From IMG/VR virus record IMGVR_UViG_3300014202_001529: a DNA stretch of 64,000 bases. The stretch is one strand, 5' to 3'. Both the position numbers and the translations under genes were made by a program. How positions within the stretch are numbered: position 1 is the stretch's first letter; each line of letters opens with the position of its first letter. Under the pieces are notes generated by a model, which saw nothing but the letters and a program-made list of their open reading frames with translations, searched no databases and was not told the DNA's origin. Origin of the DNA: a virus. Positions 5,337 to 29,094 of the stretch are shown one piece after another.

Positions 5337-6071
5337 TCATTTTTTTTTGAAGACAACAATATCCGTTTGCACGTCTGTGGCTTCAAAGACGCGCTTAGGC
5401 AGCCGGTATGCATCCAGCATTTCAGCCTTGGCTAAAATGTCGCGTTTGCAGTCGTTTTCCTTCCCGTCTATAAAGCTGGAAGGGATGATGTAAACCAGAA
5501 TCCCGCCAGGTAGCAACAGGTCCAATCCGCGTGTGATGAAATACTCCACGTAGTTGGCAGCTTTGGTGATCTGCTTTTCGGCAGCGGTGCCTTTGCCGGT
5601 GAAATCGCCATACGGCGGATTCCCGATAACAAGATTGTATTCCATTTTCCAGGTTTGTGCAACGCCGGTGCGATCGGCAAACAAAGCGTTGAATGTTCCT
5701 AAGCGAATGTCGAAGGTTGGGAAATTGGCTTTGGCTATGCGGTAGCTTACTTCGTCCAGCTCGATGCCGGTGACGGATGCTTCCGGACTGAAATAGTGCA
5801 AAATCCGGCCTATTCCGCAAGATGGCTCTAACACCTTGCCACCGGTGAACCCGTGGTGATGTGCCAGACCAACCATTTTTTCGACAATCGGGATCGGCGT
5901 GTAGTATTCATACAGGCCACGTTCTTTTTTCAGGTCGGCTTCAAAGTTCCACATGCCGCCAAATCCGATGTACTGATTAACATAAGCCAGTTCGCTGATG
6001 GTGTACGGTGGGGTTTTGCCCATCACGAACTGCGCTATTTCCTGGTTGAGTTTGTAGGCGCCCTGGTTCAT
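5337..6071 (-). CDS. N6-adenine DNA methyltransferase (DarB-like methylase domain, stand-alone)
   Basis: Motif I VLEPSCGIG, motif IV GNPPY, EYYTP near the N-terminus. Start MNQGAY overlaps the upstream stop (ATGA). Confidence 0.88.
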   Translation of the reverse strand: MNQGAYKLNQEIAQFVMGKTPPYTISELAYVNQYIGFGGMWNFEADLKKERGLYEYYTPIPIVEKMVGLAHHHGFTGGKVLEPSCGIGRILHYFSPEASVTGIELDEVSYRIAKANFPTFDIRLGTFNALFADRTGVAQTWKMEYNLVIGNPPYGDFTGKGTAAEKQITKAANYVEYFITRGLDLLLPGGILVYIIPSSFIDGKENDCKRDILAKAEMLDAYRLPKRVFEATDVQTDIVVFKKK

Positions 6072-6754
6072 GTTGTTGCCATTTTGGAGGTGAAAATGTT
6101 GATGCTGGTGCCCCCTTTCTTCTTCACCCAAAACCAAATGCCAACAATGATGAGCAGCACCAGAATGATGATGAAAATGGTAGAGCCTCCGCCGCCACTG
6201 CCTGGTTCCTTGATTTTGGAGCCAAAGAGAAAGCTCCAAATCTTTTCGAGCAGGTTGGGCTTGTCTATGAAGATTTCGTAAGACATTGGATTGAGCGCCA
6301 AAAGGCCAAACAGGCTACCCCCAGGCGCATCTTCCGTTTGTCCGTACCCTACAATGCTATCCTTGCCGATAGCAGGATTGTAAAATCCGCCGCCTTCGGG
6401 GTTGTACTCCAGCTTCAGCACATTTTCCATCATAAATTTGATGTTGCGCCGGTTGATTTGCTCTCCAACCAGTTTGGCAACGGGTTGCAGTTTTTCACCC
6501 TCTACATACTCCGTACCATTGGGTTGGATGAAGAAAATAAGCGTAGGGTCGGTTTTGACTTTTAGCTGCGGGTGCTTTTTTGCATCGGCCATCGGAAAAG
6601 ACCAGTAATCAATGCCAGAAAGCATGGCTTCGTCTTGTGGAAAACTTTCCATGCCTGCCCAAATTTCTTCTGAGAAATTGTGACCATCTGCCCAGTATTT
6701 TTCCCAGTCTTCTGTGTAGACGGCCAGAAGGTAATAGTACTTTAAATCACTCAT
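6068..6754 (-). CDS. Membrane-anchored protein with possible degenerate thioredoxin-like domain
   Basis: PTLIFF segment resembling the thioredoxin cis-Pro strand; C-terminal hydrophobic run IFIIILVLLIIVGIWFWV followed by KKK; no CxxC. Confidence 0.45.
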   Translation of the reverse strand: MSDLKYYYLLAVYTEDWEKYWADGHNFSEEIWAGMESFPQDEAMLSGIDYWSFPMADAKKHPQLKVKTDPTLIFFIQPNGTEYVEGEKLQPVAKLVGEQINRRNIKFMMENVLKLEYNPEGGGFYNPAIGKDSIVGYGQTEDAPGGSLFGLLALNPMSYEIFIDKPNLLEKIWSFLFGSKIKEPGSGGGGSTIFIIILVLLIIVGIWFWVKKKGGTSINIFTSKMATT

Positions 6755-7488
6755 ATCCGATTATACTTTTGAGTTAAAGCGACGCACGCAACGAGTGCCA
6801 CCACAATGAGTAGAAAAAGCCCCCATTCGCGCTGTGCAGCAGGCGAGTGCAGGATGTATTTTGCGCTTTGCAAAAAGTAGAATATCCGGTTGTTTCCGGA
6901 TGCCGTCACCGCGCCTTCTTCCGACTGATCGGGGAATTTTTCCAGCCGGTTCAGCCAGCCTTGCAAAAAGCCCGACTGTTGCGGCTTTGAGGTTACAATG
7001 TCCTGGTAGTATTGCGCCCGGCGATCTTTGTACAAGTTGTGGAGCACGCCAGGGTGATGCTGATCCACGGCAGACAATGTGGCTGTGCCAATGCGACCAT
7101 CCACCTTCAGCTTTTCGCCGAATTTCTGGTTCAGGGTGCTTTGCAGCATCGTGATTCCACCGGTTTTGCCGCTGCTCCCGGGACCGTGTTGGATGGTGGC
7201 ATCGAATACGATTTCAGCGAGCGCCTGGTTGGCGATTTCGCCCAACTGGTTTTTGTCCCAAAACCACTTTTTGTAAATCTCCATCGCCACGGCCTGCGAC
7301 AAGCCTTTCATATCGGCTGCACTTGGCACGCGACCAAGCCACGATTCCAGAATGGGCGCAGAAATACCGTATTTGGTGCCAACCAACTGGCCACGGCTGT
7401 TGTAGTTGCCGCTGTCCATGTCGTTGTTCTGGTAGCCGCCTTCTAATTCCAAAATTTTGGCCTGCAATGACGAGGTGAACTTTGCCAT
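6751..7488 (-). CDS. Glycoside hydrolase family 108 lysozyme with peptidoglycan-binding domain and C-terminal TM anchor
   Basis: EGGY...D.G...GTKYGIS catalytic segment; RRAQYY...FLQGWLNRL PG_binding_3-type tail; terminal hydrophobic helix. Confidence 0.88.
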   Translation of the reverse strand: MAKFTSSLQAKILELEGGYQNNDMDSGNYNSRGQLVGTKYGISAPILESWLGRVPSAADMKGLSQAVAMEIYKKWFWDKNQLGEIANQALAEIVFDATIQHGPGSSGKTGGITMLQSTLNQKFGEKLKVDGRIGTATLSAVDQHHPGVLHNLYKDRRAQYYQDIVTSKPQQSGFLQGWLNRLEKFPDQSEEGAVTASGNNRIFYFLQSAKYILHSPAAQREWGLFLLIVVALVACVALTQKYNRI

Positions 7489-7931
7489 TATTTCTTCTTT
7501 TTGCGGGTGAACCAGAACCAAGCCAGAACGGCCAGGCCAATGATGATGAGCGACGCCAACACCCAGCTAAACTCCTTCAGCCTTTTGATGACGTCCACGC
7601 CGATGCCTACTTTGCCGATCGGGTAGCCCAATTCGCTTAGCGTGTCCATTAGGGTACTTTCCGTGGCCCAATCAGCGGCGTCAATTGTTCGAAGAACGTT
7701 GCCGCTTGATGCCTCGATGAAAGCAAAAGAAGGAATGTTTGACAGGCCGTATTGGCTCATCAACAGCATGGTGTCTTCATTCTCATCATCCATCACCGGG
7801 AAAAGCACGGTGTTGCCTAACTGCTGGTAGTAGTTCTCGCTTACGCGCTCAACGATTTTAAGCAGCGGACCACACGCCGCGCAGTTGTCGGAGTGGAAGT
7901 AGAACACTGTGATCAAATTTTCGCTTTTCAT
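7488..7931 (-). CDS. Thioredoxin-fold protein (CAAC) with C-terminal TM anchor
   Basis: VFYFHSDNCAACGPL active-site context, YGLSNIPSFAF, C-terminal TM followed by RKKKK. Confidence 0.8.
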   Translation of the reverse strand: MKSENLITVFYFHSDNCAACGPLLKIVERVSENYYQQLGNTVLFPVMDDENEDTMLLMSQYGLSNIPSFAFIEASSGNVLRTIDAADWATESTLMDTLSELGYPIGKVGIGVDVIKRLKEFSWVLASLIIIGLAVLAWFWFTRKKKK

Positions 7932-8350
7932 TTTTTTCTACGTTTGCGGGTGTACCAGAAATAGCAGATGGCGATGAGGATGACGCCCAGAATGGCCAGC
8001 ATCCAGGCGTTGCGAGGATTGAGAATGAGAATGACCTGATTGAAAAGCGAAGGTGTTGTGCGCTCGTATCCCAGCTGTGCGAGCTGGTCCACAATGGTGC
8101 CTTCTGTGATGGCCGATGCCGGCGCAATGACCTGCTGAACTTTGGTGTCGAAAAAAGTGACCTGCGGGAGGTCCGTAATGGAAAGGTTCTGAACGGCATC
8201 CGGAGATGCATCCGGGTCTAAAATAGAGAAGACCACCTTGGTTTCGTCATACTGAAGCCGTAGGCGGTCGAAGATTGCAGCCAAGCGGCTGTAATCGGTT
8301 GAAGTCTTTTTTGCGACTAAAATAACGTTCATCACGAGTATTTTAGCCAT
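7928..8350 (-). CDS. Thioredoxin-like paralogue lacking CxxC, with C-terminal TM anchor
   Basis: LSITDLPQVTFFD parallels the neighbour's LSNIPSFAFIE; both share a L(A/S)(Q/E)LGY segment; TM followed by RKRRKK. Confidence 0.55.
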   Translation of the reverse strand: MAKILVMNVILVAKKTSTDYSRLAAIFDRLRLQYDETKVVFSILDPDASPDAVQNLSITDLPQVTFFDTKVQQVIAPASAITEGTIVDQLAQLGYERTTPSLFNQVILILNPRNAWMLAILGVILIAICYFWYTRKRRKK

Positions 8351-8428
8351 CCTCTTAAACAGATTGCAGCGGGAAGTTTGGCGAAGGGCGCCTTCTGTTC
8401 CCACTGTAATCGCTGCAATATTAAACTT

Positions 8429-8710
8429 TTATTGTGAAATAATCAATTTTTGTTTAAAAATTGGATTTATTTTAACGGCAACCATCTTTGCTCCGGATGA
8501 TGTGTATTTGACTCCCAGTTCGATGTCAATATTTTTTTCATCAAGCTTTTTGACTACGATCATCTGATCGAATAGTCCATATTTGTTTAAGTCGTGCAAT
8601 GTGAAATCAGGGTTATGTGCCCTGATAAATGCCCATGCAATTATGATTGCAATTGTCTTTTTATTAAGCATAACGTTTAGCGTTTTTGTGTTGTGAATTA
8701 TATTTTCCAA
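8429..8710 (-). CDS. Hypothetical protein (AT-rich insert)
   Basis: ORF only. Confidence 0.45.
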   Translation of the reverse strand: MENIIHNTKTLNVMLNKKTIAIIIAWAFIRAHNPDFTLHDLNKYGLFDQMIVVKKLDEKNIDIELGVKYTSSGAKMVAVKINPIFKQKLIISQ

Positions 8711-9099
8711 TCTTTTCTCGCCCCATAAACCGGTCGAATCTCAAACACCGCATTTGGCTCGTTCTTTTGCAGTTGCGCCTGCGCATCCTCTGCACTTTCT
8801 AAGTGTTCGTACAACCGCTTTTTGATGTATTCCAGTTGGAATCCGGTTTCTCCGATCCATTCTTTTTCATTGTGGGTAGTGGCGTATTTGGTATTCCTGT
8901 AAATGCAGTAGCCAACAATCGTGTACTCTTGAATGGTATCGGCAGAAACGGATTCTGCATCAAATAAAATTTTTATTGCTGGTTTTAACCGATTGAAGTA
9001 GTCCTTGTTTTGGCGTACAACTTCAATAATGTCATCAATAGTGATGATTTCGCCATCTATTTTTAGGTGAAAGGTTTCCATCTTTTTGACTTTTAGCAA
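8698..9099 (-). CDS. Hypothetical protein
   Basis: ORF in a co-oriented chain. Confidence 0.6.
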   Translation of the reverse strand: MLKVKKMETFHLKIDGEIITIDDIIEVVRQNKDYFNRLKPAIKILFDAESVSADTIQEYTIVGYCIYRNTKYATTHNEKEWIGETGFQLEYIKKRLYEHLESAEDAQAQLQKNEPNAVFEIRPVYGARKDWKI

Positions 9100-9314
9100 A
9101 AAAGAAATAAAAAATCATTACGCGATAGTTCTTGGTCTACATAATAAGTCTTCCAAAACGAGCATGATTTTAACCTTCGGTAGCTCCAGTGAGAATTGTT
9201 CCATTGTTGGAGTTTCATCGCTAAAATTGACTTATCGCCCGGAGTATAAGCCTTCCAAAGGACTAAAACAGTAGAGCTATGTGTACCTATTTTGGCGTTT
9301 ATAGTGTTTTTCAT
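9093..9314 (-). CDS. Hypothetical protein
   Basis: ORF in a co-oriented chain. Confidence 0.5.
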   Translation of the reverse strand: MKNTINAKIGTHSSTVLVLWKAYTPGDKSILAMKLQQWNNSHWSYRRLKSCSFWKTYYVDQELSRNDFLFLFC

Positions 9315-9323
9315 GGCTGCATT

Positions 9324-9548
9324 TTATTTATACTCAATCCAATATTTTGTGTTGTCTTGCGAACTCAACGCTTTAATCCATTCCGACAACGTACACCGGT
9401 ACCCAATTGGAACCCATCCCCAGTAGCTTACACAACCACCACTTTTTTCTGCAATCCGGCAATGGGTCATTGCGCCGGTTTGCGGGGTCAATAGGGACGA
9501 CGATTCCAGGTGGATTAAATTCGCGTATCCGAGTAGTATCTCTATCAT
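9324..9548 (-). CDS. Hypothetical protein
   Basis: ORF in a co-oriented chain. Confidence 0.4.
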   Translation of the reverse strand: MIEILLGYANLIHLESSSLLTPQTGAMTHCRIAEKSGGCVSYWGWVPIGYRCTLSEWIKALSSQDNTKYWIEYK

Positions 9549-9554
9549 CGGCCA

Positions 9555-10082
9555 CTATTTTTTTGGCCAATACCGCTGAATAACCATTAGGTATTCTTCA
9601 GTATTCCCATGATGAAGCGATCTAAGCGCTTCAAAAAAACAAACGATTTCTTCGTGTACACTAAATACTTTTTTGGGCAAATGATAGGTAAATTCTTGAT
9701 CATAGTTCCACTCAATCCGGTCTCCTTTAATAAGAAACTGCGCAAGGGCATTGATGATGGTTCGGGATTTATCTGCATGGCAGTTAAACCCTTCGTAGAC
9801 TTGTATGATTTCGTCCAACTGCGCTTCAACAAATTCAGAATTAAGAAATAACCATTTGGCTTTATCGCTTATTCCCTCAATTTTTGAACTCAAAAACCCA
9901 TTCAAAAACTTTTCATACGGGTAGATCATGGTGTAAAAAAAAGACTCAACATCTCCTATCTTTTGGAGACAGTCTTTGTTGATGTGATCGGCCTCCAAAA
10001 CGGCTTGGTAAAGTGCTATTTCTTCGGCTTTAATACCGTCAACCATTGACAGCATTATCTTTTTCAAACTAACTTCTTCCAT
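9555..10082 (-). CDS. Hypothetical protein (AT-rich)
   Basis: 175-aa ORF. Confidence 0.65.
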   Translation of the reverse strand: MEEVSLKKIMLSMVDGIKAEEIALYQAVLEADHINKDCLQKIGDVESFFYTMIYPYEKFLNGFLSSKIEGISDKAKWLFLNSEFVEAQLDEIIQVYEGFNCHADKSRTIINALAQFLIKGDRIEWNYDQEFTYHLPKKVFSVHEEIVCFFEALRSLHHGNTEEYLMVIQRYWPKK

Positions 10083-10834
10083 GTTGGTAGCTTTTTTCTA
10101 AAGTAATAAAACGCAAGTCCAAACAGCAACACCGCCACCAGCGCCCACGCCAGCGACCTGCCCTTAATATCCTCTCCCCGATCATCCGGACTGACAATTT
10201 CCCGGAACATGCCCACAATGGCCCCAAATGGCCGAAAAAGCCAGTCGAACGAGATTCCCCCCGATGATTGTTGTGTGATATTGGCCGATACGGTGTCGGT
10301 GTTGTAGCGCAGCCGCTTCTGGTTGTTCCAGTAAGCGTAGCGGGCACCCCGCCAGGTCTCCGTCCGTTTGCTGCGGAAAGATGGATACAGTTCTGATTGA
10401 ACTGTATCTATATGCAGGAAGGTATCATACACGCCAAAACCCCTTGCGCCGGCATCCCACAATGCCCGAAAAAGCGGGCCTTTGGCCTTGTAATCTTCGC
10501 GGATCGAAACGTACAGCCGATCTACCTCTGCCTGAGCGCCAATGAACTGGAAATCTATCGCACACGCAAGCATGTGCGGACTTTGAGAAACGCCCCCTGG
10601 GGGGACGTAAGTGCGGTAGGTGGACGTTATCCGGATTGGATAGTCGAAAGCGTCGCGGATGATCTGTACGCAGCGCACTGCCTGCAAGGAGATTGGATGC
10701 GAACGCCCGATTTTCGGATTATACAGTTCAGCTTCCGTGAAATTGTCCGTCACCCGAGCGGATGAACCGGCACTGACCATCACGAAATCGTTCGGGTCGT
10801 TGGCATGCAGTGGTAAAAGCGTGTCAGGCTTCAT
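10064..10834 (-). CDS. Peptidase M15-family Zn peptidase (peptidoglycan hydrolase) with C-terminal TM anchor
   Basis: ITSTYR...SPHMLACAIDF (H-x6-D) and FLHIDT zinc ligands; terminal LAWALVAVLLFGLAFYYF followed by RKK. Confidence 0.82.
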   Translation of the reverse strand: MKPDTLLPLHANDPNDFVMVSAGSSARVTDNFTEAELYNPKIGRSHPISLQAVRCVQIIRDAFDYPIRITSTYRTYVPPGGVSQSPHMLACAIDFQFIGAQAEVDRLYVSIREDYKAKGPLFRALWDAGARGFGVYDTFLHIDTVQSELYPSFRSKRTETWRGARYAYWNNQKRLRYNTDTVSANITQQSSGGISFDWLFRPFGAIVGMFREIVSPDDRGEDIKGRSLAWALVAVLLFGLAFYYFRKKLPTWKKLV

Positions 10835-11138
10835 CTTCTTGTTCTGATTTTAGCTTTAGCCAGAGGATTGCGGCCAGCACAATGACCAATATTAGCAAAA
10901 TCCCGGTTGCGAGCTTGTAATTAAATCCGGGTTTTGGTGGTGGTGCTGGTTGTGGCGTTGTTGCTGTTGTGGCTCCTTTTTCGACGAACGCGTTAATGGC
11001 GTTTTCAAATAAAGCGCCAACGAACTCCCCTTTGTAGGGCGTGCCGGTTTCACTGTCTTTTTGCTCTTCATAGAGCTTCAAGACGTTTTCGGCAATGCCT
11101 GCATCTACTTTCATTCCCAATAGGGTGACTTTGCTCAT
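10824..11138 (-). CDS. Small membrane protein with C-terminal TM
   Basis: Pro/Thr linker followed by LATGILLILVIVLAAILWL-KLK. Confidence 0.75.
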   Translation of the reverse strand: MSKVTLLGMKVDAGIAENVLKLYEEQKDSETGTPYKGEFVGALFENAINAFVEKGATTATTPQPAPPPKPGFNYKLATGILLILVIVLAAILWLKLKSEQEDEA

Positions 11139-11158
11139 ATCGCATCTTATTTAAGAAG

Positions 11159-11173
11159 TTGCAATATACGCAA
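11159..11173. promoter_or_regulatory. Operator palindrome, variant copy (TTGCAATATACGCAA)
   Basis: Matches TTGCG-N5-CGCAA with one mismatch; lies just upstream of the 11138 start. Confidence 0.6.
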
Positions 11174-11208
11174 TTTTTGTTTTATCAAACAAACCTGTAA
11201 AGGGATTT

Positions 11209-11613
11209 TTACACTGACTGGAATTGCCGCAGCTCTATCATCCCCTCTTCGACTGCCGCGTTGAAGGCATAAAGCACCAGCAGGTAGGCCGGGTCGGCGC
11301 TTTGGTGAACATCCTGCGTTTCCAAAATCGCTTCGTGCGATTCTGTGTTTTCGCGGTAGTACTTAATCAGCCGCTCTACAATTGCAGAAGCTGCGCCGCT
11401 TTTGGTTTTATAGATCCGGTCCACTTCTTTCCACCACGGAGCACCGTGGAATCTTACATTTTTGGTTTTGGCGTTGGCAAACGGGTTGTCGCCTTCGCTT
11501 TCCGCAGCAGCGGTATTGCTGTTCTTTTTCCACAAACGAAAAGCTGCATACCACGCGGCAATGGTGAGCAGAATCAATAGTACCAGGGCAATTGTAGCGG
11601 TCGTCTTTTTCAC
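11209..11613 (-). CDS. Membrane protein with N-terminal TM
   Basis: MKKTTATIALVLLILLTIAAWYAAF-RLWKK. Confidence 0.75.
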   Translation of the reverse strand: MKKTTATIALVLLILLTIAAWYAAFRLWKKNSNTAAAESEGDNPFANAKTKNVRFHGAPWWKEVDRIYKTKSGAASAIVERLIKYYRENTESHEAILETQDVHQSADPAYLLVLYAFNAAVEEGMIELRQFQSV

Positions 11614-11620
11614 GGCATTT

Positions 11621-11824
11621 CTATTTTCTTGCAGCAGCCACGCTGGCCGCTATCATCACAATGAGCAAAAACAATAAGCCCAGGATCACATACAACAGGG
11701 TATTATCCCTGCTTTTCTGGAAATCCTTGGCTGTCATCCAATCCGGTAGCCTACCCCAGCGAGCTTCTTTGTCGGCAGCAAAAAGGTTGGTGACGGATGT
11801 TAGAAACCCAAAAATTGCGTTCAT
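11621..11824 (-). CDS. Small membrane protein with C-terminal TM
   Basis: LLYVILGLLFLLIVMIAASVAAA-RK. Confidence 0.75.
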   Translation of the reverse strand: MNAIFGFLTSVTNLFAADKEARWGRLPDWMTAKDFQKSRDNTLLYVILGLLFLLIVMIAASVAAARK

Positions 11825-11828
11825 GACT

Positions 11829-12206
11829 TTATTTTTTACGACTCAACCGCCGCATAAGGAAAAAGCCGGTAATTCCAACCAAAACCAACAGGGCAATCAC
11901 AATCGGCCAGAGCATTTGTGTGCGCTCGGCCTCCTGCTGTTTTTCGCCGGTTGGGTCATAAAACTCTTCGATGGTTGCATCCTGGCCGGAGCAGGGATCG
12001 TATCCGTAGGCAGACATCACCACACGGCGGTCCACGTAGTTCCCGGTGCATAAAAACTCATCCTTGGTTGCAAGGTTGTAGTTCCCGCTGCACGCAGCGT
12101 CGCACGCACGTTCCAAATCGGGCTGCGCACCAAACCAGCTTTTGCACCGCTGCCGGCAATGCAGTTTTTTGCAGGATTTGTACCCTAAGCACGCTTCTAA
12201 GGCCAT
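11829..12206 (-). CDS. Cys-rich membrane protein with C-terminal TM
   Basis: Eight Cys in the N-terminal domain, then TM and RRLSRKK. Start MALEAC follows the stop of the 12211 ORF. Confidence 0.75.
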   Translation of the reverse strand: MALEACLGYKSCKKLHCRQRCKSWFGAQPDLERACDAACSGNYNLATKDEFLCTGNYVDRRVVMSAYGYDPCSGQDATIEEFYDPTGEKQQEAERTQMLWPIVIALLVLVGITGFFLMRRLSRKK

Positions 12207-12210
12207 AGCT

Positions 12211-12366
12211 TTATTTTTTTCGTGTGGATGCAAATACAAGCCCGGAAACGATCAGGGCAATGCCGACTACAATGCCGACAAAAATCAATATGCGCCGACG
12301 TTTCCTACCTGCGCAATTGTTGCAGCCGCAGCCGCAATCCTCTTTTTGTTCTTGTGGATGTTCCAT
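12211..12366 (-). CDS. 51-aa membrane microprotein with CGCGCNNC motif (not in ORF track)
   Basis: Hand translation: MEHPQEQKEDCGCGCNNCAGRKRRRILIFVGIVVGIALIVSGLVFASTRKK; fills the gap exactly. Confidence 0.7.
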   Translation of the reverse strand: MEHPQEQKEDCGCGCNNCAGRKRRRILIFVGIVVGIALIVSGLVFASTRKK

Positions 12367-12369
12367 GTG

Positions 12370-13229: not shown

Positions 13230-13488
13230 TCTGTTGACGTTTTTTTATATTGGTGGTGAAATAAATTATTGCGGCCATTAACAGGCAATCTCGAATTGTG
13301 TAAGCCACAACATCCGGATAGACCAAACACGCGAACGAAGCAGCAGGAATCGTCAGCAGCAGCATTCTTTTCCACACCTGCACGCAGTCCTCCAACGCCG
13401 TGACAAATAGCAGCACGCCGATGATGAATCCTGTGTTGATCAGGATGTTAAAAAAAAACCGAGCTGTTTCTAATCCTTCTTTTTCCAC
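13207..13488 (-). CDS. Small multi-TM membrane protein
   Basis: Three hydrophobic segments. Confidence 0.6.
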   Translation of the reverse strand: MEKEGLETARFFFNILINTGFIIGVLLFVTALEDCVQVWKRMLLLTIPAASFACLVYPDVVAYTIRDCLLMAAIIYFTTNIKKRQQNEPSSEP

Positions 13489-15770: not shown

Positions 15771-15780
15771 ATTATTGATA

Positions 15781-19282: not shown

Positions 19283-19283
19283 A

Positions 19284-21788: not shown

Positions 21789-21816
21789 ATAATTAGAGTT
21801 GATCATGTCAAGATAA

Positions 21817-23262
21817 TTAAGGTTTAATCTTTAAATTTCGATCGCCGGTGACGCGGTACACGCCGCCCGATGGAAGCCCCCCATCGGCATCTGCGGCAGC
21901 GTCGTTGGCATAGGATGGAATATCTGGGTGAATGACTAAATCGCCGCTGGCGTCCTGGTAGATGGCGTTCTTTTTCCAGAAAACAAACCCGTCTAAATCT
22001 GAACCTATTACATCAGAAACAGTCCCTTGAAGACCAAGCGAATCATAAATTTTCCCTTTAAAATAGGAGTCGCCGTTGACTGAAAAAAATACGCCAGGAC
22101 CGCGAGTAGCTGGTGTGGTTATGGGGGGCACAGTAGCGCCAATTCTGAACGTTGTAATGGAATCAAAATAAGTCACGTTAGCTTGTAGCTGGATAGCCAA
22201 ATTTCCAGATTGTGTGTAAAGCCAGAATCTCGGAGGGTTAGGCGCAGCGCTGGTAACTGTATTAAAAGTAATAGCTGGCTGCCCGCCCATCGTCCACCGA
22301 AGTACGCTGCCTCCAGGGCTTTCTATGTGCACATTAGCAGTAGGTACTTGCAGGCCAATGCCAACTTTTCCAGTGTGGTAAATGTCCTGCGTGATGTTGG
22401 ATGGGATGGTGTTTGCCGTGCCGGAAACATACCAGTCTGCATCACCGCTACCCGCGTTGATTGGGTAGTTGTCCACATCCCCATTGTAATACTCCACCCG
22501 CAGCGTCGTATCCCCTGGAGTGGTTACCGAAATGACCGGATTGTTGATGACCGGGCTCCCCCCCGGCCCAAACGAAACCACCAATTCCGGCACATCAAAA
22601 TATGCCTTATCCGTCCCGAACGTTCGGAAACCAAAAATGGCGTAGGTGCTGTCCGGAGTGGTCCCGAAGGTGCCGTTGTCCTGAAGGAAATAGTCATTGC
22701 CTTCCGGGCGCCCATGCGCCCAGGTGAGCCAGCCTTCGTTTTGGATCACAAAGGTGTTGGCATCTATGACCTGGCTGATGAACGCAACCGGGAAACTATC
22801 CGGTTCGGAAGCACTGGCCGGGAAGTAATCGCCGTTTCCGGGTTCCTGGCCGACCATCGTGCCAGCAAAAAAACCGTGCCCCGTTTGGGTGATGGTGTCT
22901 CCACCTACGAAAGCCTGTATGATCTGTTGGATATTCGAGCCAGCCGTGAAGGTGTTGCCGCCAATGGTGATGTTGGCCGTGGTGAAAATGTTGTCAGCCT
23001 GGGCATTGATGATGGTTGTGTCGCCGCTGATGGCGTAGGTATAGGTACCGTCGCCGTTGTCGGTCAGAGTGCCACCTCCACCGGTGCCCGGGGGAAGTAC
23101 GTCAATCAGCCGGCGAAACTGAAGCTCGCCAAGGCTGTCAGAGTAGAGGATGTAGGCGCTATCCGGCGCCACATAAATCTGCTTCGCCGGGTTGATGCGG
23201 CGTTGTGCGGTCAAGGCCGTCACGGTGAGCAAAAGAGCGAGTATGGTGAAAAGTTTCTTCAT
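21817..23262 (-). CDS. Fibre/spike-like protein with Sec signal peptide
   Basis: MKKLFTILALLLTVTALTA-QR; LTDNGDGTYTY and GKVGIGLQVP repeats; shares a TQxxHGF...NxFxI domain with the neighbouring fibre. Confidence 0.65.
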   Translation of the reverse strand: MKKLFTILALLLTVTALTAQRRINPAKQIYVAPDSAYILYSDSLGELQFRRLIDVLPPGTGGGGTLTDNGDGTYTYAISGDTTIINAQADNIFTTANITIGGNTFTAGSNIQQIIQAFVGGDTITQTGHGFFAGTMVGQEPGNGDYFPASASEPDSFPVAFISQVIDANTFVIQNEGWLTWAHGRPEGNDYFLQDNGTFGTTPDSTYAIFGFRTFGTDKAYFDVPELVVSFGPGGSPVINNPVISVTTPGDTTLRVEYYNGDVDNYPINAGSGDADWYVSGTANTIPSNITQDIYHTGKVGIGLQVPTANVHIESPGGSVLRWTMGGQPAITFNTVTSAAPNPPRFWLYTQSGNLAIQLQANVTYFDSITTFRIGATVPPITTPATRGPGVFFSVNGDSYFKGKIYDSLGLQGTVSDVIGSDLDGFVFWKKNAIYQDASGDLVIHPDIPSYANDAAADADGGLPSGGVYRVTGDRNLKIKP

Positions 23263-23268: not shown

Positions 23269-23661
23269 TTAGCTGAATATTTGATATTTGACAAAGATGT
23301 TGGCGGCAATTCGGGGTGCAGTGAAAACAATGGTATCCACCGCAGCACCAGCGCCATACGTGACCGAAAAATCCAGAATGGGATAGTCGTCTACCCCTTC
23401 TGTTTTCACCGCCATAAGCGCCAGGTTGGTTGGTAGTTTTCCGCCGTTGACGCCGATGGGCACGGGCAGGTTGGTGCCGGAAAAGTTCTCTTCGACAAAA
23501 TAGAAAGCGCCGGTAAGCACGCCGGATATGCCAACAATTTGTGATGGGTGAACCCTGACGACTTTCCCGTTGGTCAGCTCCAATACAAGCCAATCCCCAT
23601 TGCTTAGCGCAATGTCCGGATCGGTTAATGCTGAAGGCTTATTTCCCGTAATATTGCACAT
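23269..23661 (-). CDS. Small beta-rich putative structural protein
   Basis: 130 aa with alternating hydrophobic strands. Confidence 0.55.
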   Translation of the reverse strand: MCNITGNKPSALTDPDIALSNGDWLVLELTNGKVVRVHPSQIVGISGVLTGAFYFVEENFSGTNLPVPIGVNGGKLPTNLALMAVKTEGVDDYPILDFSVTYGAGAAVDTIVFTAPRIAANIFVKYQIFS

Positions 23662-23673: not shown

Positions 23674-24081
23674 TTACACAAAGGCGATATAGTTGCCTAA
23701 GTGGTCCATTAAAAAATGATTCTGGTGCGTCATGATGGCGTTGGTCAGACCGGTTGCCGGTTCTACGTTTGCGTATCCAGCACAGTCCAACACGTCCATC
23801 TCGACGTTTATGTTCTCGTAAATTTCAAATCCAGGGGGGAAGGTTTTGACCACCGCAATGGGGAATGGCGTGTTGAGCGTGAAAGCCCCCGAAACGCCGT
23901 CTACTTCCAAAAAGGCAATGTCGCTGATGCTGTTGATGGCGTTTTTTGTTCCGGCCAGGGTGACGGTGCCTTCGTTGGCGCCCGCATCCGTGAACCTGAA
24001 GGTGACCTGAATGGGGTCACTCAGGTCGCAGTTGGGTGCGACGACTTTGCATATCTGAAGGCTTATTTTGACGTTTGCCAT
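23674..24081 (-). CDS. Small beta-rich putative structural protein (vertex/penton candidate)
   Basis: 135 aa, predominantly beta pattern; position between capsid candidate and fibres. Confidence 0.5.
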   Translation of the reverse strand: MANVKISLQICKVVAPNCDLSDPIQVTFRFTDAGANEGTVTLAGTKNAINSISDIAFLEVDGVSGAFTLNTPFPIAVVKTFPPGFEIYENINVEMDVLDCAGYANVEPATGLTNAIMTHQNHFLMDHLGNYIAFV

Positions 24082-24093
24082 TGGGTGCTGGTT

Positions 24094-24417
24094 TTAGGTG
24101 ATTGGGACGAATCCAAAACCGGGTGTGGGAATGGTACGGCATTCGGTAGCGTAGGTGGCAAAGTTGTCGTAGCTCGCTTGCACGCAGATGATGTCGCCGT
24201 TTTCGAGTTCCACGGTATACTCGATCTGGTTGGTGCCGGTGTTTGGTTCGCCGGCAGTGGTTTCAATCACGATGCCGTCTCGGGTGATGACCACGCGCAC
24301 ATCGTCGCCGATGCTGCCGGTGCTGTCCACTGTCAGGCCGTCGCCGTCGTAGCCTTCGTTTTGAGCGAAAGGCAAAGGCCCAGAACTGCCAAAAACCCGA
24401 CTGCAACTAAAACTCAT
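24094..24417 (-). CDS. Small beta-rich putative structural protein
   Basis: 107 aa from MSFSC; Ig- or jelly-roll-like strand pattern. Confidence 0.5.
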   Translation of the reverse strand: MSFSCSRVFGSSGPLPFAQNEGYDGDGLTVDSTGSIGDDVRVVITRDGIVIETTAGEPNTGTNQIEYTVELENGDIICVQASYDNFATYATECRTIPTPGFGFVPIT

Positions 24418-24494
24418 ATTCGTGGAAATTAAAAATGGCCTTGCCCGAAACAAGTCAAGCAAGGCCATTTATGTGTTAGCAATTACTTGCTGTA

Positions 24495-24635
24495 TTAAGC
24501 GATTCGCTTAGAAACCACTACTGCGACCAGTGTACCGATTACGATTCCAAGGAATAAGGCCGCGCCAATCGAGATTCCGAGGTAGGTAGCGGATGTCTTG
24601 TCCAAGGAGAAATTAATGTCCATCAAGCCTCCCAT
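24495..24635 (-). CDS. 46-aa single-TM microprotein (not in ORF track)
   Basis: MGGLMDINFSLDKTSATYLGISIGAALFLGIVIGTLVAVVVSKRIA. Confidence 0.7.
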   Translation of the reverse strand: MGGLMDINFSLDKTSATYLGISIGAALFLGIVIGTLVAVVVSKRIA

Positions 24636-24638
24636 AGT

Positions 24639-24776
24639 TTATTCAGTTTTGCCAGTTGTATCGGTAAGCAATTTTTCAAGTTGCTTTTCCTGAATTTTCA
24701 TAGTGAAGTAGTCAGCCACAACACTTGCGAGTACGATGACGAGGAATAATATTCCCCATTCTTGCCAGTTTTTCAT
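24639..24776 (-). CDS. 45-aa single-TM microprotein (not in ORF track)
   Basis: MKNWQEWGILFLVIVLASVVADYFTMKIQEKQLEKLLTDTTGKTE. Confidence 0.7.
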   Translation of the reverse strand: MKNWQEWGILFLVIVLASVVADYFTMKIQEKQLEKLLTDTTGKTE

Positions 24777-24777
24777 G

Positions 24778-24903
24778 TCACTCTTTGATTTGAGCAGTTT
24801 CATCGAGCTTTTTGTTGACGTGATACGTCACATAAGCTCCAATAACTGCAAGAATTACGTTGATGGCGATGAAGCCCACAATGAATTGCCAGGTAACTTT
24901 CAT
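24778..24903 (-). CDS. 41-aa single-TM microprotein (not in ORF track)
   Basis: MKVTWQFIVGFIAINVILAVIGAYVTYHVNKKLDETAQIKE. Confidence 0.7.
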   Translation of the reverse strand: MKVTWQFIVGFIAINVILAVIGAYVTYHVNKKLDETAQIKE

Positions 24904-24905
24904 CG

Positions 24906-25082
24906 TTATGCCGGTTTACAGTTGAAGTACTCGCCTTTGAACACCAATGGGTAACCGGATTCTTCTTCCTCGTTGCCTTTGAACAGGCGCTTGATTCCGC
25001 CTACTACAAGCGACAACAGGATGATGACGCCAACAAAGGCGACCACATAAATCCCGTATTGTACCCATTTCTTGTTGTCCAT
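24906..25082 (-). CDS. 58-aa single-TM microprotein (not in ORF track)
   Basis: MDNKKWVQYGIYVVAFVGVIILLSLVVGGIKRLFKGNEEEESGYPLVFKGEYFNCKPA. Confidence 0.7.
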   Translation of the reverse strand: MDNKKWVQYGIYVVAFVGVIILLSLVVGGIKRLFKGNEEEESGYPLVFKGEYFNCKPA

Positions 25083-25088
25083 CGCTGG

Positions 25089-25304
25089 TTACTTCTTGCC
25101 GTAAGAATAGGCTTTCGCAATAGCGCCAGCCGTACTGTCGGTTTGGTTGCCGGAAGTGCCTCCTACAGGATCTCCTCCAGTTCCAGTGCCGCCACCTGCT
25201 TCATCCTTTTTCTTTTTGCGGTAGTAATAAACCGCAACGACGATACCTGCGACGAGCACAAGGACGATAATCCAAAATTTGTTCTTTGACCAGTTCATAG
25301 TCAT
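25089..25304 (-). CDS. Single-TM microprotein
   Basis: FWIIVLVLVAGIVVAVYYY followed by RKKKK and a Gly-rich tail. Confidence 0.75.
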   Translation of the reverse strand: MTMNWSKNKFWIIVLVLVAGIVVAVYYYRKKKKDEAGGGTGTGGDPVGGTSGNQTDSTAGAIAKAYSYGKK

Positions 25305-25708
25305 TTCCTTTGTTGAAGAAGTCTAAAAATCAAAGCGATCATAAGCAGACAAAAAAGCACGAAAAGTATGCTTATCCAGTTCACGTTCATCTGCGAAAAC
25401 CATTTCCCTATTTGCACCTCCGGTTTATCCGAATGCTGCTTTTCGATCAGGTTTTGCAAGGTCGTCCGGTTGGATGATGCGGTCAGAAAATCTGCATTTT
25501 CGCCGTAAAAATCAACGGGCACACTTAGTACGTCAACCAAAAAAGCCTTTGCTTCCCGGTCTCCCATGCCACTCATGGCATCAATAATCACGGTGTATAA
25601 TTCATCCGGCATTAAATACTCCTGAAGAATCCCACGCGTCTGAAGCTTTTCAGCGACGGCAGTGGGATTGTTCAAGAGGATGGCGGAAATAAAATCTTGC
25701 AGGTTCAT
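25301..25708 (-). CDS. Membrane protein with C-terminal TM
   Basis: WISILFVLFCLLMIALIF followed by RLLQQRK. Confidence 0.75.
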   Translation of the reverse strand: MNLQDFISAILLNNPTAVAEKLQTRGILQEYLMPDELYTVIIDAMSGMGDREAKAFLVDVLSVPVDFYGENADFLTASSNRTTLQNLIEKQHSDKPEVQIGKWFSQMNVNWISILFVLFCLLMIALIFRLLQQRK

Positions 25709-25761: not shown

Positions 25762-26472
25762 CTAGTCGCGAGCGTAAGCCTGTACGAAGAAAGTCATGGT
25801 GATGACCATCCCGTGGTAGGCATTGAAAACCCAGGCGCAGTTGCGATCCACACGCGACTTCTCATCCGTCAGCGGGATGATGTACGTGTTGCGGTCGTAG
25901 TTGGCCGGGTCGTTGAAGTTGCCGAGTGGCAATTCATGCGACACTTTCTTCCGTGTGGTCATGTTGTAGCAGATGATCCGCTCCTGGTACTGCATCAGTG
26001 CAGTCGCAGCGGCACCTGCCGCTGGCGCTACATCAATCTTCACGCCGCTGAACAGGTAAGTTTGTCCACACAGACCGGCAACCCAGCTGTTGTACAAGTT
26101 ACGGGCAGCAGTATTGACATACACGCTATTGGCTGGGAATGGCGTAGCCAAACCTTCATAAGCCTGGAAGTATTTGCCCTCATCGAAAAGGACGATTTGC
26201 TGCTGTGCGGAAGTGAGGCCGAGGGCAACCGTGTTTACTACAACCGTTACGCTGTCCTCAACAGCAATTCCTTCAGGGATGGACAAGTTAGCGATCGGTT
26301 GGCCAACAGGCACCTTTGCGCTTACGTTCATGCCGCGTTCGGGCAGGATGAGCTTTGTGCCTGCGCCTGGAACAAGCTTAGATGCCGTGCCGGGGAGTAG
26401 GTTAGAAGAAACCGCGTCCGAAGCCTGACGGTTCATTTTGGATCTGGTAAGCAATTGTTGGAAAGCACTCAT
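25762..26472 (-). CDS. Putative major capsid protein with jelly-roll-like fold
   Basis: 236 aa from MSAFQQ: ~70-aa low-complexity N-arm, then about eight predicted beta strands (VTVVVN, QIVLFD, YLFSGVKIDV, RIICYN, HELPL, TYIIPL, AWVFNA, VITMTFFV). First gene after the ATPase-operon terminator and ahead of the membrane-protein run. Confidence 0.5.
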   Translation of the reverse strand: MSAFQQLLTRSKMNRQASDAVSSNLLPGTASKLVPGAGTKLILPERGMNVSAKVPVGQPIANLSIPEGIAVEDSVTVVVNTVALGLTSAQQQIVLFDEGKYFQAYEGLATPFPANSVYVNTAARNLYNSWVAGLCGQTYLFSGVKIDVAPAAGAAATALMQYQERIICYNMTTRKKVSHELPLGNFNDPANYDRNTYIIPLTDEKSRVDRNCAWVFNAYHGMVITMTFFVQAYARD

Positions 26473-26622: not shown

Positions 26623-26652
26623 AAAAAAGCCGGAACCAACAGGGTTCCGGCT
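26623..26652 (-). terminator. Intrinsic terminator after the ATPase operon
   Basis: AGCCGGAACC-5 nt-GGTTCCGGCT stem with a U-run on the minus strand. Confidence 0.8.
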
Positions 26653-26689
26653 CTAAATTCCGATTGAACGCATTACTAATGAAAAGTAA

Positions 26690-26977
26690 CTACACGTCTT
26701 CGTACCTAAATCTGATCGTAACCTCATCTCCTGACCGACGGAAAATCGTGATCAAGATGATGCGGGCTACCTCAATGGATACTTTTTTCTTCCGCTTTTG
26801 GTTCTCGTACAATTCTGAAAACCCCTCAACGGTATTTTTTAATAGCGATATTTCCTGGTTGTATAAGCCGGTATTACCTATGTTGAGCTTTTGCCTCAAC
26901 ACGGCTTTGAAAACGAAAGAACCGCAAGCGGGTACTTCGATGACTTTAGTTTCCTGTTCATTGTTTTGTTCACTCAT
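26690..26977 (-). CDS. Small basic hypothetical protein downstream of the ATPase
   Basis: 95 aa; ATGA overlap with the ATPase. Confidence 0.65.
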   Translation of the reverse strand: MSEQNNEQETKVIEVPACGSFVFKAVLRQKLNIGNTGLYNQEISLLKNTVEGFSELYENQKRKKKVSIEVARIILITIFRRSGDEVTIRFRYEDV

Positions 26978-27747
26978 ACCTCTACAATTTCATACGGCTG
27001 CACCAGGTAATTCGTTTCCTTTGCTTTTTCTACGCGCTGGTATGCCTGCCACAACCGTTCGGAGCAACTGTACCTACTTATCTGTTTGTAAGTAAGGTTA
27101 GTCTCTCCTGTCTTAAAGAGAATTATTTTCGCCAACATGTCGCTGCGTGAAAAAAACAGCGGCACCTTCATGAGCTGGTGGCACACGAAGAAAACCTCGA
27201 CGCCCCAGTTGCGGTGGTTGTTGATGATGTCAATCTGCCAATCAGGCGGATTAGCACGGACGTAGGTGGTCCACTCATCCAGAACCAACAATCCGTTTTT
27301 AAAATTTGTGGCGATGTAGGTGTACATGTGCTCAATGTTCCGGATGCCCCGGCACATGTAGCGCAATGCGCCGTTTTTCCAGAGGGGCTGGCCATTTCTG
27401 TCTTTTGCGGCCATCAGGTCAAGCGGATGCTCGAATTTTATGCCAAATTTTATGCGAAGTTGTTCGCACGCCTGCTCCACGGTAATGATGTCTGAAAATG
27501 CCCGGCTTCCGGACATATCGTGTATAAAAACTCGCGGCTGAACGTTTTCATACCGCGTGCTGAATTTGTCCAGATAGATGTCCACAGCATCGCGCAAAAA
27601 GGTAGATTTCCCTTGCCCTTTGCCGCCGATTATCAAATAAGCCTGATAATCGCGGGCGCCGGTCTGCTTTTCCTGCATAGCACGCAAAGTTCGCCCTGGC
27701 AATGGCTCCAGCCCTCTGTTCTCTCCTTCTTCTTTGCGCTTTGCCAT
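26974..27747 (-). CDS. FtsK/HerA-superfamily (A32/P9-like) packaging-type ATPase
   Basis: Walker A YLIIGGKGQGKST, Walker B LLVLDE, then NHRNWGVEVFFVCHQ (Arg finger plus Gln sensor). 257 aa, no TM, no nuclease domain. Confidence 0.8.
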   Translation of the reverse strand: MAKRKEEGENRGLEPLPGRTLRAMQEKQTGARDYQAYLIIGGKGQGKSTFLRDAVDIYLDKFSTRYENVQPRVFIHDMSGSRAFSDIITVEQACEQLRIKFGIKFEHPLDLMAAKDRNGQPLWKNGALRYMCRGIRNIEHMYTYIATNFKNGLLVLDEWTTYVRANPPDWQIDIINNHRNWGVEVFFVCHQLMKVPLFFSRSDMLAKIILFKTGETNLTYKQISRYSCSERLWQAYQRVEKAKETNYLVQPYEIVEV

Positions 27748-27752
27748 GTTGC

Positions 27753-28475
27753 CTATGATTCGCGGTATTTGAATTCAGGCATTTTTACCTGAATGGTCAT
27801 TAATGCACTCAACACGCGAACTTCCGGCAGCACAAACAAATAAACCGGCACCATCCATGTTGGAAACTTTTTGCCCTGAAGCTTCATTTTTTCAACCTTG
27901 TAGCTGATGTATTTGAGCATCAATGCCCGGTGTTTTTCGCTGTATGGCACTGCACTCAAGTACTCTCGCTTCAGTACGTCGTGCTCATCCACAAAAGCCC
28001 ATAGCGCTTTCATCAGGTTCGTTTCCTGTGTGGTTTTTGCATCCTTTACGGACAATTCGCGGATGATCCGTTTGGCTTCGGCTGTGGCAGCAGTGTAGAT
28101 TTTGTGGTCGTAGGCGTAGTTGTGGATATTGATGCGAAGATCTTCCCACACATCCAGTAACATTTCCGCATCCAGCTCTGAAAAGTCAAAACTTTCTTGG
28201 TCGTTCCCGCCTGGCGGGATGTCGCTGTCGCTATCAGAACCGGACGCGGCTTCTTCCGCCATAATTCGTTCCACTTCCTCCGTGGAGAACATTTCTTCCA
28301 GCTTTGGACCGTCCTTTGCGCTGGCATTCGGATCGGCTGGCTCGTAGGGGATGTATTCTCCTCCAGCGTCGCCGGTGGAGCCAAAATTGGGTTTGGTGCT
28401 GGCTCCGGCTTTGGTATTTACCTCGCCGGGTATGCTCCCAGCGTCGCCAAAAATATCGAATGTGTTATTGGCCAT
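27753..28475 (-). CDS. Hypothetical protein (acidic N-terminus, helical C-terminus) upstream of the ATPase
   Basis: 240-aa ORF in the operon. Confidence 0.75.
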   Translation of the reverse strand: MANNTFDIFGDAGSIPGEVNTKAGASTKPNFGSTGDAGGEYIPYEPADPNASAKDGPKLEEMFSTEEVERIMAEEAASGSDSDSDIPPGGNDQESFDFSELDAEMLLDVWEDLRINIHNYAYDHKIYTAATAEAKRIIRELSVKDAKTTQETNLMKALWAFVDEHDVLKREYLSAVPYSEKHRALMLKYISYKVEKMKLQGKKFPTWMVPVYLFVLPEVRVLSALMTIQVKMPEFKYRES

Positions 28476-29094
28476 CTTGCCCTCCTTCTATTTTTTTTGT
28501 GGTTGCATCTGGAATGAGGTTGTATTTATTCAAAATGGCGACTATTTCCGGCAACATGCTGCCCATTTGCGGAAATGAAGCTTTAATTTGTTCGAGGTTT
28601 TGCCGCATGACTGTAATGACCTCCCAAACAATTCTTGCCCCGTCAGGTGGCAGTTCAATACCAAACATGGTTTTCAGTACTTTTACAAAAACTGAGGGTA
28701 TTTTGCCTTGTGATTCTGGAATATCAATGGCTCTTTGGATCAAAAAACCAAAATTTTTATGAAACACAACCACGGCTTTGAGTAGCGTGTCGCGCTCCGC
28801 TTTCACTTCTTCCAGTGCCAATTCAAACTCCAGTTTTTCGCTTACCAGGTCTCGCGCACGTTGCCGGAAAAGATCCATCTGCTCTTTGGTGTGCAGCGTC
28901 AATTCGCCTGCTTCAACCATTTTCAAAAACTCCTCTACCCTACCCTGCTCCAGCATGGTCTTTGGGTCATCAAGCGGTTTGGGTTCATCTTCACCCTTCA
29001 CAACCTCTTCCGGCCCCTGCTCTTCGCCCCGTCCTTCTTTCACTGGTCTGTCTGGCAGTATTCTCTTCTTTTTTAAAACTTTTCCATCCTCCAT
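28465..29094 (-). CDS. Hypothetical coiled-coil protein, first gene of the morphogenesis block
   Basis: 209-aa ORF. Confidence 0.75.
   Translation of the reverse strand: MEDGKVLKKKRILPDRPVKEGRGEEQGPEEVVKGEDEPKPLDDPKTMLEQGRVEEFLKMVEAGELTLHTKEQMDLFRQRARDLVSEKLEFELALEEVKAERDTLLKAVVVFHKNFGFLIQRAIDIPESQGKIPSVFVKVLKTMFGIELPPDGARIVWEVITVMRQNLEQIKASFPQMGSMLPEIVAILNKYNLIPDATTKKIEGGQDGQ

Follow-up and report, generated by a model that had tools for sequence, protein, structure and literature searches.

The 64,000-nucleotide stretch of IMG/VR record IMGVR_UViG_3300014202_001529 (hereafter the window, meaning the whole stretch) raises the question of what kind of element carries lysis-type enzymes, an integrase and repressors in a genome in which no terminase, portal, HK97 capsid or tail gene can be recognized. 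From the block at positions 5337–29094, the original prediction had proposed a new lineage of large, tailless, lipid-containing temperate viruses of Bacteroidota. We consider it probable (roughly 0.68) that the window represents a temperate virus of Saprospiraceae, tailless and of icosahedral type, in the form of its circular genome, either excised or episomal. The virus would contain a membrane and combine a single-jelly-roll coat protein with an A32-type motor. Its lipid content, its lack of a tail and its capacity to form particles are suggested by gene content. The first 1,225 bases of the window are identical to its last 1,225, which makes it a circle of 62,775 bp that has been run on past its start to reach 64,000 bases and confirms the closed 62.8-kb genome initially proposed. 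Nearly all genes from 29094 down to 326 lie on the minus strand, and the tools show that this late block of ~29 kb is transcribed on one strand.

A soluble ATPase of 257 amino acids (aa), of FtsK/HerA type and A32/P9-like, is encoded at 26974..27747 on the minus strand and has no transmembrane helix. The motifs first read in it (GGKGQGKST, LVLDE and HRNWG...HQ) are present, and the GGKGxGKS, Walker B DE, HRN and H(Q) blocks are invariant or nearly so in 17 homologues. Its nearest clusters in the ESM Atlas are viral and labelled Pox_A32, Zot or DUF87 (score 0.97, TM-score 0.63–0.68), and in one of them Preplasmiviricota is the commonest phylum. When the open reading frames (ORFs) of SSIP-1, PRD1, PM2 and P23-77 were searched with a hidden Markov model (HMM), only the packaging ATPases of PM2 and P23-77 came below E 0.1. 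Alignment of the family by hhalign gave 89% over 46 columns with P23-77 ORF13 and 85% over 125 columns with PM2 P9; the latter spans Walker A, Walker B and the R..YG..Q block and pairs HRNWGVE..HQ with GRKYGVQ..TQ. No significant alignment was obtained with Bam35 gp14 (11%, 20 columns) or PRD1 P9 (3.6%, 19 columns), and the window's own DnaB, used as a control, gave 1.1% over 30 columns. The templates were single sequences, which makes the hhalign evidence moderate. Traits of Inoviridae are absent: the ATPase is soluble, its alignment with M13 pI reaches 42% over 44 columns, the genome is 62.8 kb long with a DnaB gene, and no Rep is found among the Pfam matches. Taken together, these comparisons suggest that the protein most probably works like, and is, an A32/P9-type packaging ATPase.

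The genes on either side of the ATPase are also conserved. Directly upstream, a 240-aa protein with a C-terminal membrane helix (at residue 208; 27753..28475, minus strand) is retained in 11 loci at 23–89% identity and occupies the position of PRD1 P10 and PM2 gp h, making it a candidate assembly or packaging-vertex protein. It is preceded by the first gene of the late block (28465..29094, minus strand), encoding an acidic, helical protein of 209 aa that is kept in the same position in eight related loci, has no Pfam or PHROG match and may serve as a scaffold or in assembly. Downstream, a conserved 95-aa gene (26690..26977, minus strand) present in 12 of 12 related loci stands between the ATPase and coat genes, the position held by PRD1 gpi/P20, PM2 P7 and P23-77 ORF14. 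The ATPase, 95-aa and coat genes are adjacent in most related loci, with an insertion between them in two. In the window, the gap between the 95-aa and coat genes holds a strong terminator-like hairpin just upstream of the coat gene (26626..26654, minus strand), which has a 12-bp stem with seven GC pairs followed by a T run. In relatives, this gap is a hot spot for insertions. Inserts of 6–9 kb occupy it in two copies in one metagenome-assembled genome (MAG; L007:11070-16933 and L012:11071-19709), one with a tyrosine-recombinase-like gene, and another relative carries an HU-like gene there (L004:11048-11320).

The coat candidate lies at 25762..26472 (minus strand). Described at first as a beta-rich capsid candidate, it is predicted with confidence to adopt a jelly-roll fold of viral type, preceded by a helical arm at the N-terminus, but its start needed correction: the alignment moves it to a conserved Met21, giving a protein of 236 aa. 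An exhaustive HMMER search of 1.84 billion proteins found 34 family representatives with E ≤ 0.001, nearly all of 220–258 aa, a word search of 5.8 billion proteins found four clusters, and a PHROG scan of 40 family members gave nothing. AlphaFold2 models were made for two proteins, the coat candidate (from a 40-row alignment) and the fused 124+135-aa protein described below. The coat model (pLDDT 90.6, pTM 0.76) comprises two N-terminal helices (residues 3–33), an extended linker and one beta sandwich of ~165 residues. All of the top 50 Foldseek matches in the Protein Data Bank (PDB) are viral coat proteins, from picornavirus VP2/VP3, comovirus, tymovirus and calicivirus (E 4e-4 to 2e-3; probability up to 0.97, for CPMV), and the named top matches in BFVD are viral coat proteins as well. 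VIA-align against 48,161 chains gave Z 5–6 over residues 70–236, where by the tool's own note a Z below 8 denotes a common fold only. The viral chains matched include a nanovirus coat, the second barrels of the phiCjT23 and FLiP major capsid proteins, the PR772 penton P31, PBCV-1, STIV A223 and Sulfolobus polyhedral virus 1 (SPV1). Language-model neighbours, which are a lead only, are single-jelly-roll coats (Viral_coat, Cucumo, Luteo, Circo; 0.89). An Atlas shape search with the model stayed below a TM-score of 0.5, and AFDB clusters yielded only unnamed proteins of 209–241 aa (best E 2e-8, TM-score 0.55/0.61). By its modelled structure, the protein has one jelly roll, of the type seen in viral coats, and no specific relative can be named for it. 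No signal peptide was predicted in the coat candidate.

We also asked how copies of the coat candidate associate with one another. A three-copy complex prediction scored 0.88, compared with 0.00 for the best control, using an alignment of our own and a copy number that depart from the tool's calibration; the mark for this score is reached by 20 of 30 proteins solved as homomers and by 1 of 23 solved as single chains. Copies 1 and 2 each make contact by a single face, and these faces are opposite ones; copy 3 engages both. This pattern suggests self-association as an open head-to-tail arc, not a closed trimer, and would fit a ring of five or six subunits.

BLAST comparison with related loci shows that a fixed gene order is kept in 12 of them. 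The order runs from the 209-aa, 240-aa (C-terminal transmembrane helix), ATPase, 95-aa and coat genes through a 135-aa transmembrane protein and further small transmembrane proteins to the 124-, 135- and 130-aa proteins, and ends with the N-terminal ~120 aa of a 481-aa protein; the synteny of ATPase, coat and micro-membrane-protein genes, for which a search of Bacteroidota genomes had been proposed, is present in these loci. The order is kept in L017, where coat identity is only 19% and thioredoxin and N6-methylase genes lie downstream. Relatives are embedded in contigs of 0.2–0.9 Mb, and a contig of 230 kb has on record a coat protein identical to that of the window. All named genome matches are to Saprospiraceae, i.e., Phaeodactylibacter xiamenensis KD52, Lewinella, Phaeodactylibacter and Saprospiraceae MAGs. 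The coat profile was detected in 8 of the 301 genomes sampled from the family of KD52 (KD52 itself and G002 included), compared with 0 of 400 others sampled from the phylum; the module family is present in ~3% of sampled Saprospiraceae genomes. The host assignment to Bacteroidota is therefore correct at the level of the phylum but too broad, as the host range seen is one family. The lineage is rare and is not recognized by the phage databases searched. Megablast of 13000–30000 against phages and plasmids gave no match, a scan of JGI metagenomes found only four loci, profile searches against PDB sequences gave nothing meaningful, and full-text literature searches returned no description of the lineage. 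The whole of 15799–29094 is dark to Pfam and PHROG. The KD52 element is collinear with the window across the module, the S8 protease, M15, GH108, the methylase and the helicase, with M15, GH108 and a 136-aa protein conserved in the same order.

Small membrane proteins accompany the coat gene. Single-pass proteins of 135, 71, 58, ~41, 54 and 46 aa are predicted at 24495..25708 (minus strand), and those of 135, 71, 54 and 46 aa are conserved across several loci. By a simple hydropathy rule, 24 of the 37 ORFs in 5337–29094 have a transmembrane segment or signal peptide, compared with 8 of 58 elsewhere (Fisher p = 4e-7), so the excess of membrane proteins, earlier put at about 20 small ones, is real; it is indirect evidence for a possible internal lipid membrane. 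A single C-terminal helix with a short basic tail is found in eight proteins, 8/8 of which are encoded inside the block; these include the GH108 and M15 enzymes and a thioredoxin-like protein.

Two small beta-sandwich proteins (124 and 135 aa; 23674..24468, minus strand) had been named as vertex candidates. Their genes are fused into one 250-aa ORF in a relative (L004:14654-15406), and the AlphaFold2 model of the fusion contains two seven-strand sandwiches (pLDDT 72 overall, 76–96 within the domains). VIA-align matches it to the tandem Ig-like Bap-C (Z 9.0) and Foldseek to FN3/Ig tandems; an Atlas search was uninformative (0.77). These matches point to Ig/FN3-like folds in place of the proposed vertex role, and we reject the two proteins as a second or double jelly-roll coat. 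They may possibly act in decoration or in a fibre shaft. A beta-rich protein of 130 aa (23269..23661, minus strand), conserved in eight loci at 35–87% identity and matching no Pfam or PHROG family, is a penton or vertex candidate. Comparison by hhalign revealed no relation among the 124-, 135-, 130-aa and coat families. On the opposite strand, a 238-aa ORF (23716-24432, plus strand) was rejected as spurious: of the relatives, only the closest shares it, while the 124- and 135-aa genes on the minus strand are retained in all; a public gene caller lists it as a gene in a close relative (L001:12084-12800, minus strand).

Genes for lysis, lysogeny and replication are also present. A 118-aa holin with three transmembrane segments (13470-13826, minus strand; phrog_2359, E 4.6e-10) and two multi-pass membrane proteins are predicted within 12777..13826 (minus strand). 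They are followed by a block of membrane enzymes and small transmembrane proteins (6068..12702, minus strand) that includes a Peptidase_M15_3 protein (10064-10834), a GH108 muramidase with a PG_binding_3 domain (6751-7521) and two thioredoxin-like proteins (7488-7931 and 7928-8404), all four on the minus strand and with a C-terminal transmembrane helix and basic tail. The lysogeny module at 55264-58105 consists, by Pfam, of an excisionase-like HTH_17 protein (55264-55605, minus strand), a tyrosine integrase of Bacteroidota type (56643-57818, plus strand) and a weak Cro/CI-type helix-turn-helix protein (57815-58105, plus strand). Pfam and PHROG thus bear out the lysis enzymes and the integrase, but the repressors only weakly, through this last protein. 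The DnaB replicative helicase of the early module is also present as foreseen (42368-43909, minus strand; DnaB_C E 5e-74, DnaB E 1e-31).

In the scheme that we propose from these genes, the jelly-roll protein would assemble into ring-shaped capsomers, each with more than three subunits, above a membrane patch that is specific to the virus and filled with the small membrane proteins. The ATPase would pump in the double-stranded DNA (dsDNA) at a special vertex. GH108 and M15, tethered to the virion membrane, would be carried along with it and breach the wall during entry, as does PRD1 P7, which is a membrane-anchored wall hydrolase. Holin and hydrolases would release the progeny, and the integrase and Xis-like protein would move the genome into and out of the chromosome. 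The split DarB-like methylase-helicase may enter the particle and serve there against restriction.

Several observations weigh against this reading. A search for sequencing runs listed none. ATPase and coat had no tblastn match in 50,697 phage genomes (INPHARED), and IMG/VR scans with the alignments of both proteins found none. The ATPase reaches no Pfam family cut-off, including those of Pox_A32, Zot and DUF87; the sub-threshold matches among its 17 members (Pox_A32 in 1/17, Zot in 2/17, FtsK_SpoIIIE in 2/17; E ~0.02–0.04) are those of a generic P-loop protein. The Foldseek TM-scores of the coat are low (0.2–0.37), because of its arms, and its Z of 5–6 is the generic jelly-roll level, a range that also takes in nucleoplasmin, TNF and carbohydrate-binding modules. 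In known dsDNA viruses that contain a membrane and have single-barrel coats, there are two such coat proteins; we found one jelly-roll protein among the two modelled, the coat and the fused 124+135-aa protein. The 236-aa protein could also be a penton instead of the main coat protein. The copy in KD52 spans only ~33 kb (G001:C79, ~217.3–251.1 kb), with an integrase remnant and no early region. Finally, fibre-like proteins and a protease bear conserved Sec signal peptides, which cytoplasmic assembly of the PRD1 type does not predict.

The exported proteins bear on the plan of the virion. Fibre-like proteins of 481, 840, 245 and 935 aa (15799..23262, minus strand) have no Pfam or PHROG match; those of 481 and 840 aa begin with Sec signal peptides whose last residues are AQ or GQ, and the former is conserved over its N-terminal ~120 aa and variable in the remainder. 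A subtilisin-like S8 protease (13878..15842, minus strand; Peptidase_S8 E 2e-32), with a homologue in the KD52 element, has a signal peptide that starts at an internal Met25. Five relatives retain both the signal peptide and the motif that comes after it. Fibre-like proteins are thus present as originally described, but with export signals that cytoplasmic virion assembly leaves unexplained; exported spikes are unexpected because PRD1-type virions assemble in the cytoplasm. Such proteins could lie in the lumen of an internal vesicle, belong to a virion with an outer envelope or be no virion parts at all, and they have so far no place in the scheme above. In relatives, the fibre slot also holds a signal-peptide protein with a sulfatase domain (L010:18537-20396; L002:20689 onward; KD52), which may be a polysaccharide-degrading enzyme, virion-borne or secreted, in an alga-associated host.

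These features leave room for the same coat and motor in another virion plan, in which an outer envelope is gained by budding at the inner membrane or the particle is completed in the periplasm, with fibres and protease outside and the tail-anchored enzymes under the envelope. Such a plan would suit the signal peptides that relatives share on the S8 protease and on the fibre-like proteins of 481 and 840 aa, the signal-peptide sulfatase-domain proteins in the same slot of KD52 and the very large number of membrane proteins. We nevertheless consider it unlikely, since the fibre-like proteins have no C-terminal anchor, the gene order is that of internal-membrane viruses and no enveloped or periplasmically completed phage of this kind is known to us for double-membraned bacteria. 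Similarly doubtful is the wider proposal that a jelly-roll virus exports fibres, protease and degradative enzymes through Sec and then either takes on an outer envelope or loads them into the lumen of an internal vesicle. If true, this would be a Sec-export route of virion assembly without precedent among phages of double-membraned bacteria.

It is also quite unlikely that the window is a non-viral integrative element of plasmid-like or integrative-conjugative-element-like type, whose late block would build an envelope or surface apparatus, with the jelly roll a mere beta sandwich and the ATPase serving secretion or DNA transfer. Such an element would account for the exported fibre-like proteins and protease and for the generic Z scores of the jelly roll. 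The DarB-like methylase-helicase and the ParB-like, Zeta and RelA-SpoT proteins are polyvalent proteins of the sort found on conjugative elements. Viral pipelines, moreover, do not recognize the lineage. We scanned every ORF of at least 237 aa with Pfam, and most also with PHROGs. These profile scans, however, found no relaxase, VirB4 or coupling protein (T4CP/VirD4). Grouping of the ATPase with VirB4/VirD4, together with a relaxase, had been named as a refuting outcome; the refuting tests that were run left the virus reading standing. The holin, the size and motifs of the ATPase, which are those of capsid-packaging ATPases and align with PM2 and P23-77, the restriction of the coat's Foldseek matches to viral coats and the lack of a signal peptide on the coat candidate all argue for a virus.

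That the element is, at least in some hosts, a defective or domesticated particle module, comparable to a gene transfer agent or bacteriocin, and not an autonomous virus appears very unlikely. The copies in KD52 and L002/L003 are ~33 kb long, adjoin host genes and an insertion sequence, have an integrase remnant and no replication genes; in KD52, host genes and an insertion sequence stand directly beside the divergent gene pair that faces the late block. The window, on the other hand, is a closed circle with an intact integrase, an Xis-like gene, DnaB and lysis genes, and the sparse distribution (8/301 genomes), sometimes as two copies, is expected of a mobile element. Because the KD52 copy is short, we regard the late block and the polyvalent proteins as the core of the lineage, to which the window adds ~27 kb of early and accessory genes.

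The profile scans likewise found no terminase, portal, HK97 or tail match in any ORF of at least 237 aa, in agreement, at the level of sequence profiles, with the absence of these genes noted originally. Only DnaB and the 257-aa ATPase are Walker A proteins with a recognized NTPase role; the pattern [AG]xxxxGK[ST] also occurs by chance in three further proteins, and no TerL-like Walker A was found in any ORF of at least 380 aa. A tailed phage so divergent that Pfam and PHROG miss its terminase, portal, capsid and tail proteins could hide in the ORFs of 935, 840, 553, 597 and 405 aa that match no named family, and Bacteroidota phages are known for divergent structural genes, but it is highly improbable given the absence of a terminase-like Walker A, the signal peptides on two of the large proteins, the helical or low-complexity character and early position of the 553- and 597-aa proteins and the dedicated small packaging ATPase near a jelly-roll protein.

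We turn to the remaining genes. A divergent pair on the plus strand (148 and 159 aa; 29218-30170) faces the late block; neither gene has a family match, the 148-aa gene is kept at the same position in nine related loci, and the pair are candidate regulators of the late genes. At the far end of the late block (326..6071, minus strand) is a split DarB-like N6-methyltransferase (300 aa as listed) and SNF2 helicase (1606 aa; ORF 326-5146). They match phrog_1685, phrog_11801 and phrog_10089 at successive profile positions and the Pfam families N6_Mtase/Eco57I, SNF2-rel_dom and Helicase_C. The methylase ORF as listed (5337-6239, minus strand) is over-extended at its 5' end, where it overlaps the gene at 6068-6754 and its first ~55 residues, rich in His and Arg, appear to be non-coding; the true start is probably near 6071. 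At the corresponding end of the KD52 element (L013:3-3551 and 7703-10273), a polyvalent protein of 1183 aa with Zeta toxin and RelA/SpoT domains and an 856-aa ddrB-ParB protein lie beside the SNF2 helicase, and a 597-aa protein of the window matches part of the 1183-aa protein.

DNA-modification genes are dense in the window (50266-53364, 60307-61206 and 32241-33098), with Dcm (680 aa), Dam, two PAPS-reductase-like proteins and the DarB-like methylase; a PAPS reductase gene is also present in P23-77. Pfam names a DUF5131 protein outside the late block. A helical 553-aa protein (53367-55028, minus strand) without a family match has a counterpart of 36% identity upstream of the module in L004/L005 and is a candidate replication initiator or regulator. 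A 405-aa protein (34928-36145, minus strand) has a DnaJ-like CxxCxGxG zinc-finger cluster, and its PHROG matches are weak and only to families of unknown function. No tRNA gene or Rfam family was found in the window and they thus give no clue to the att site.

Bacterial tailless dsDNA viruses with jelly-roll coats have been thought to be capped in size. A lineage of 33–63 kb that relies on one small jelly-roll coat protein and an A32-type motor would widen the known range, the genome exceeding those of typical bacterial viruses of this build (P23-77, 17 kb) three- to fourfold. It would also give the single-barrel and double-barrel capsid lineages a new bacterial branch close to their root, and the lack of matches in phage genomes and IMG/VR would mean that an entire kind of prophage escapes current virus detection. 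How a virion is assembled when its fibre-like proteins bear conserved Sec signal peptides is a concrete, testable problem. The question is open to experiment, because a relative resides in the cultured KD52 and the family occurs in a few percent of the Saprospiraceae sampled.

In gene order the window resembles internal-membrane viruses. The order ATPase, small gene, coat, micro-membrane proteins (and spike) mirrors that of PRD1, PM2 and P23-77. Halopanivirales (the Thermus phages P23-77/IN93 and the haloarchaeal SH1/HHIV-2/SNJ1; Helvetiavirae, now realm Singelaviria) share the small A32-type ATPase, the small gene, single-jelly-roll coat gene(s), small membrane proteins and virion-associated wall hydrolases, and some members are temperate with circular dsDNA. 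They differ in having two adjacent single-barrel coat genes, where we found one jelly roll in the two proteins modelled; Simuloviridae and Sphaerolipoviridae have two single-barrel coat proteins and genomes of 16–31 kb (PMC12642351, PMC12643093). The present lineage spans 33–63 kb, compared with 16–31 kb for Halopanivirales, its fibres are Sec-exported, and its coat has no detectable sequence similarity to the coats of the P23-77 group.

Pseudoalteromonas phage PM2 (Corticoviridae) and PRD1/Bam35 (Tectiviridae) differ in their coats, which are double jelly rolls (DJR), and in their genomes of 10–15 kb, compared with which the 62,775 bp of the circle are several times larger, as originally stated. 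PM2-like elements also occur as temperate prophages. All known prokaryotic DJR viruses have genomes of 7–18 kb (PMC5894146). In the two proteins modelled we found no DJR coat of Bamfordvirae: the 236-aa coat has one barrel and the fused 124+135-aa protein is an Ig/FN3 tandem. The inventory first likened to that of tectiviruses, corticoviruses and sphaerolipoviruses needs changing in the coat, which as a single jelly roll is not tectivirus- or corticovirus-like.

The host of SSIP-1 belongs to a Bacteroidota-related group. SSIP-1 is similar in being a large circular dsDNA virus (43.8 kb) that is tailless, has an internal membrane and matches almost nothing in its genome (PMC6356626), and it is the only isolated precedent that we found for this size class. 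It differs in its two reported coat protein types, its lytic lifestyle and its halophilic nature, and neither ATPase nor coat has sequence or profile similarity to any SSIP-1 ORF. SPV1 (Portogloboviridae), an archaeal virus of 20 kb that is not known to have a packaging ATPase, has a single-jelly-roll shell of hexameric capsomers over a membrane. The coat model matches its chain 6oj0_Z weakly (Z 4.8), and the predicted open head-to-tail arc would fit rings larger than three, as in the SPV1 hexamers. In concept, the coat candidate appears nearer to the P23-77/SH1 group or to SPV1 than to tectiviruses and corticoviruses.

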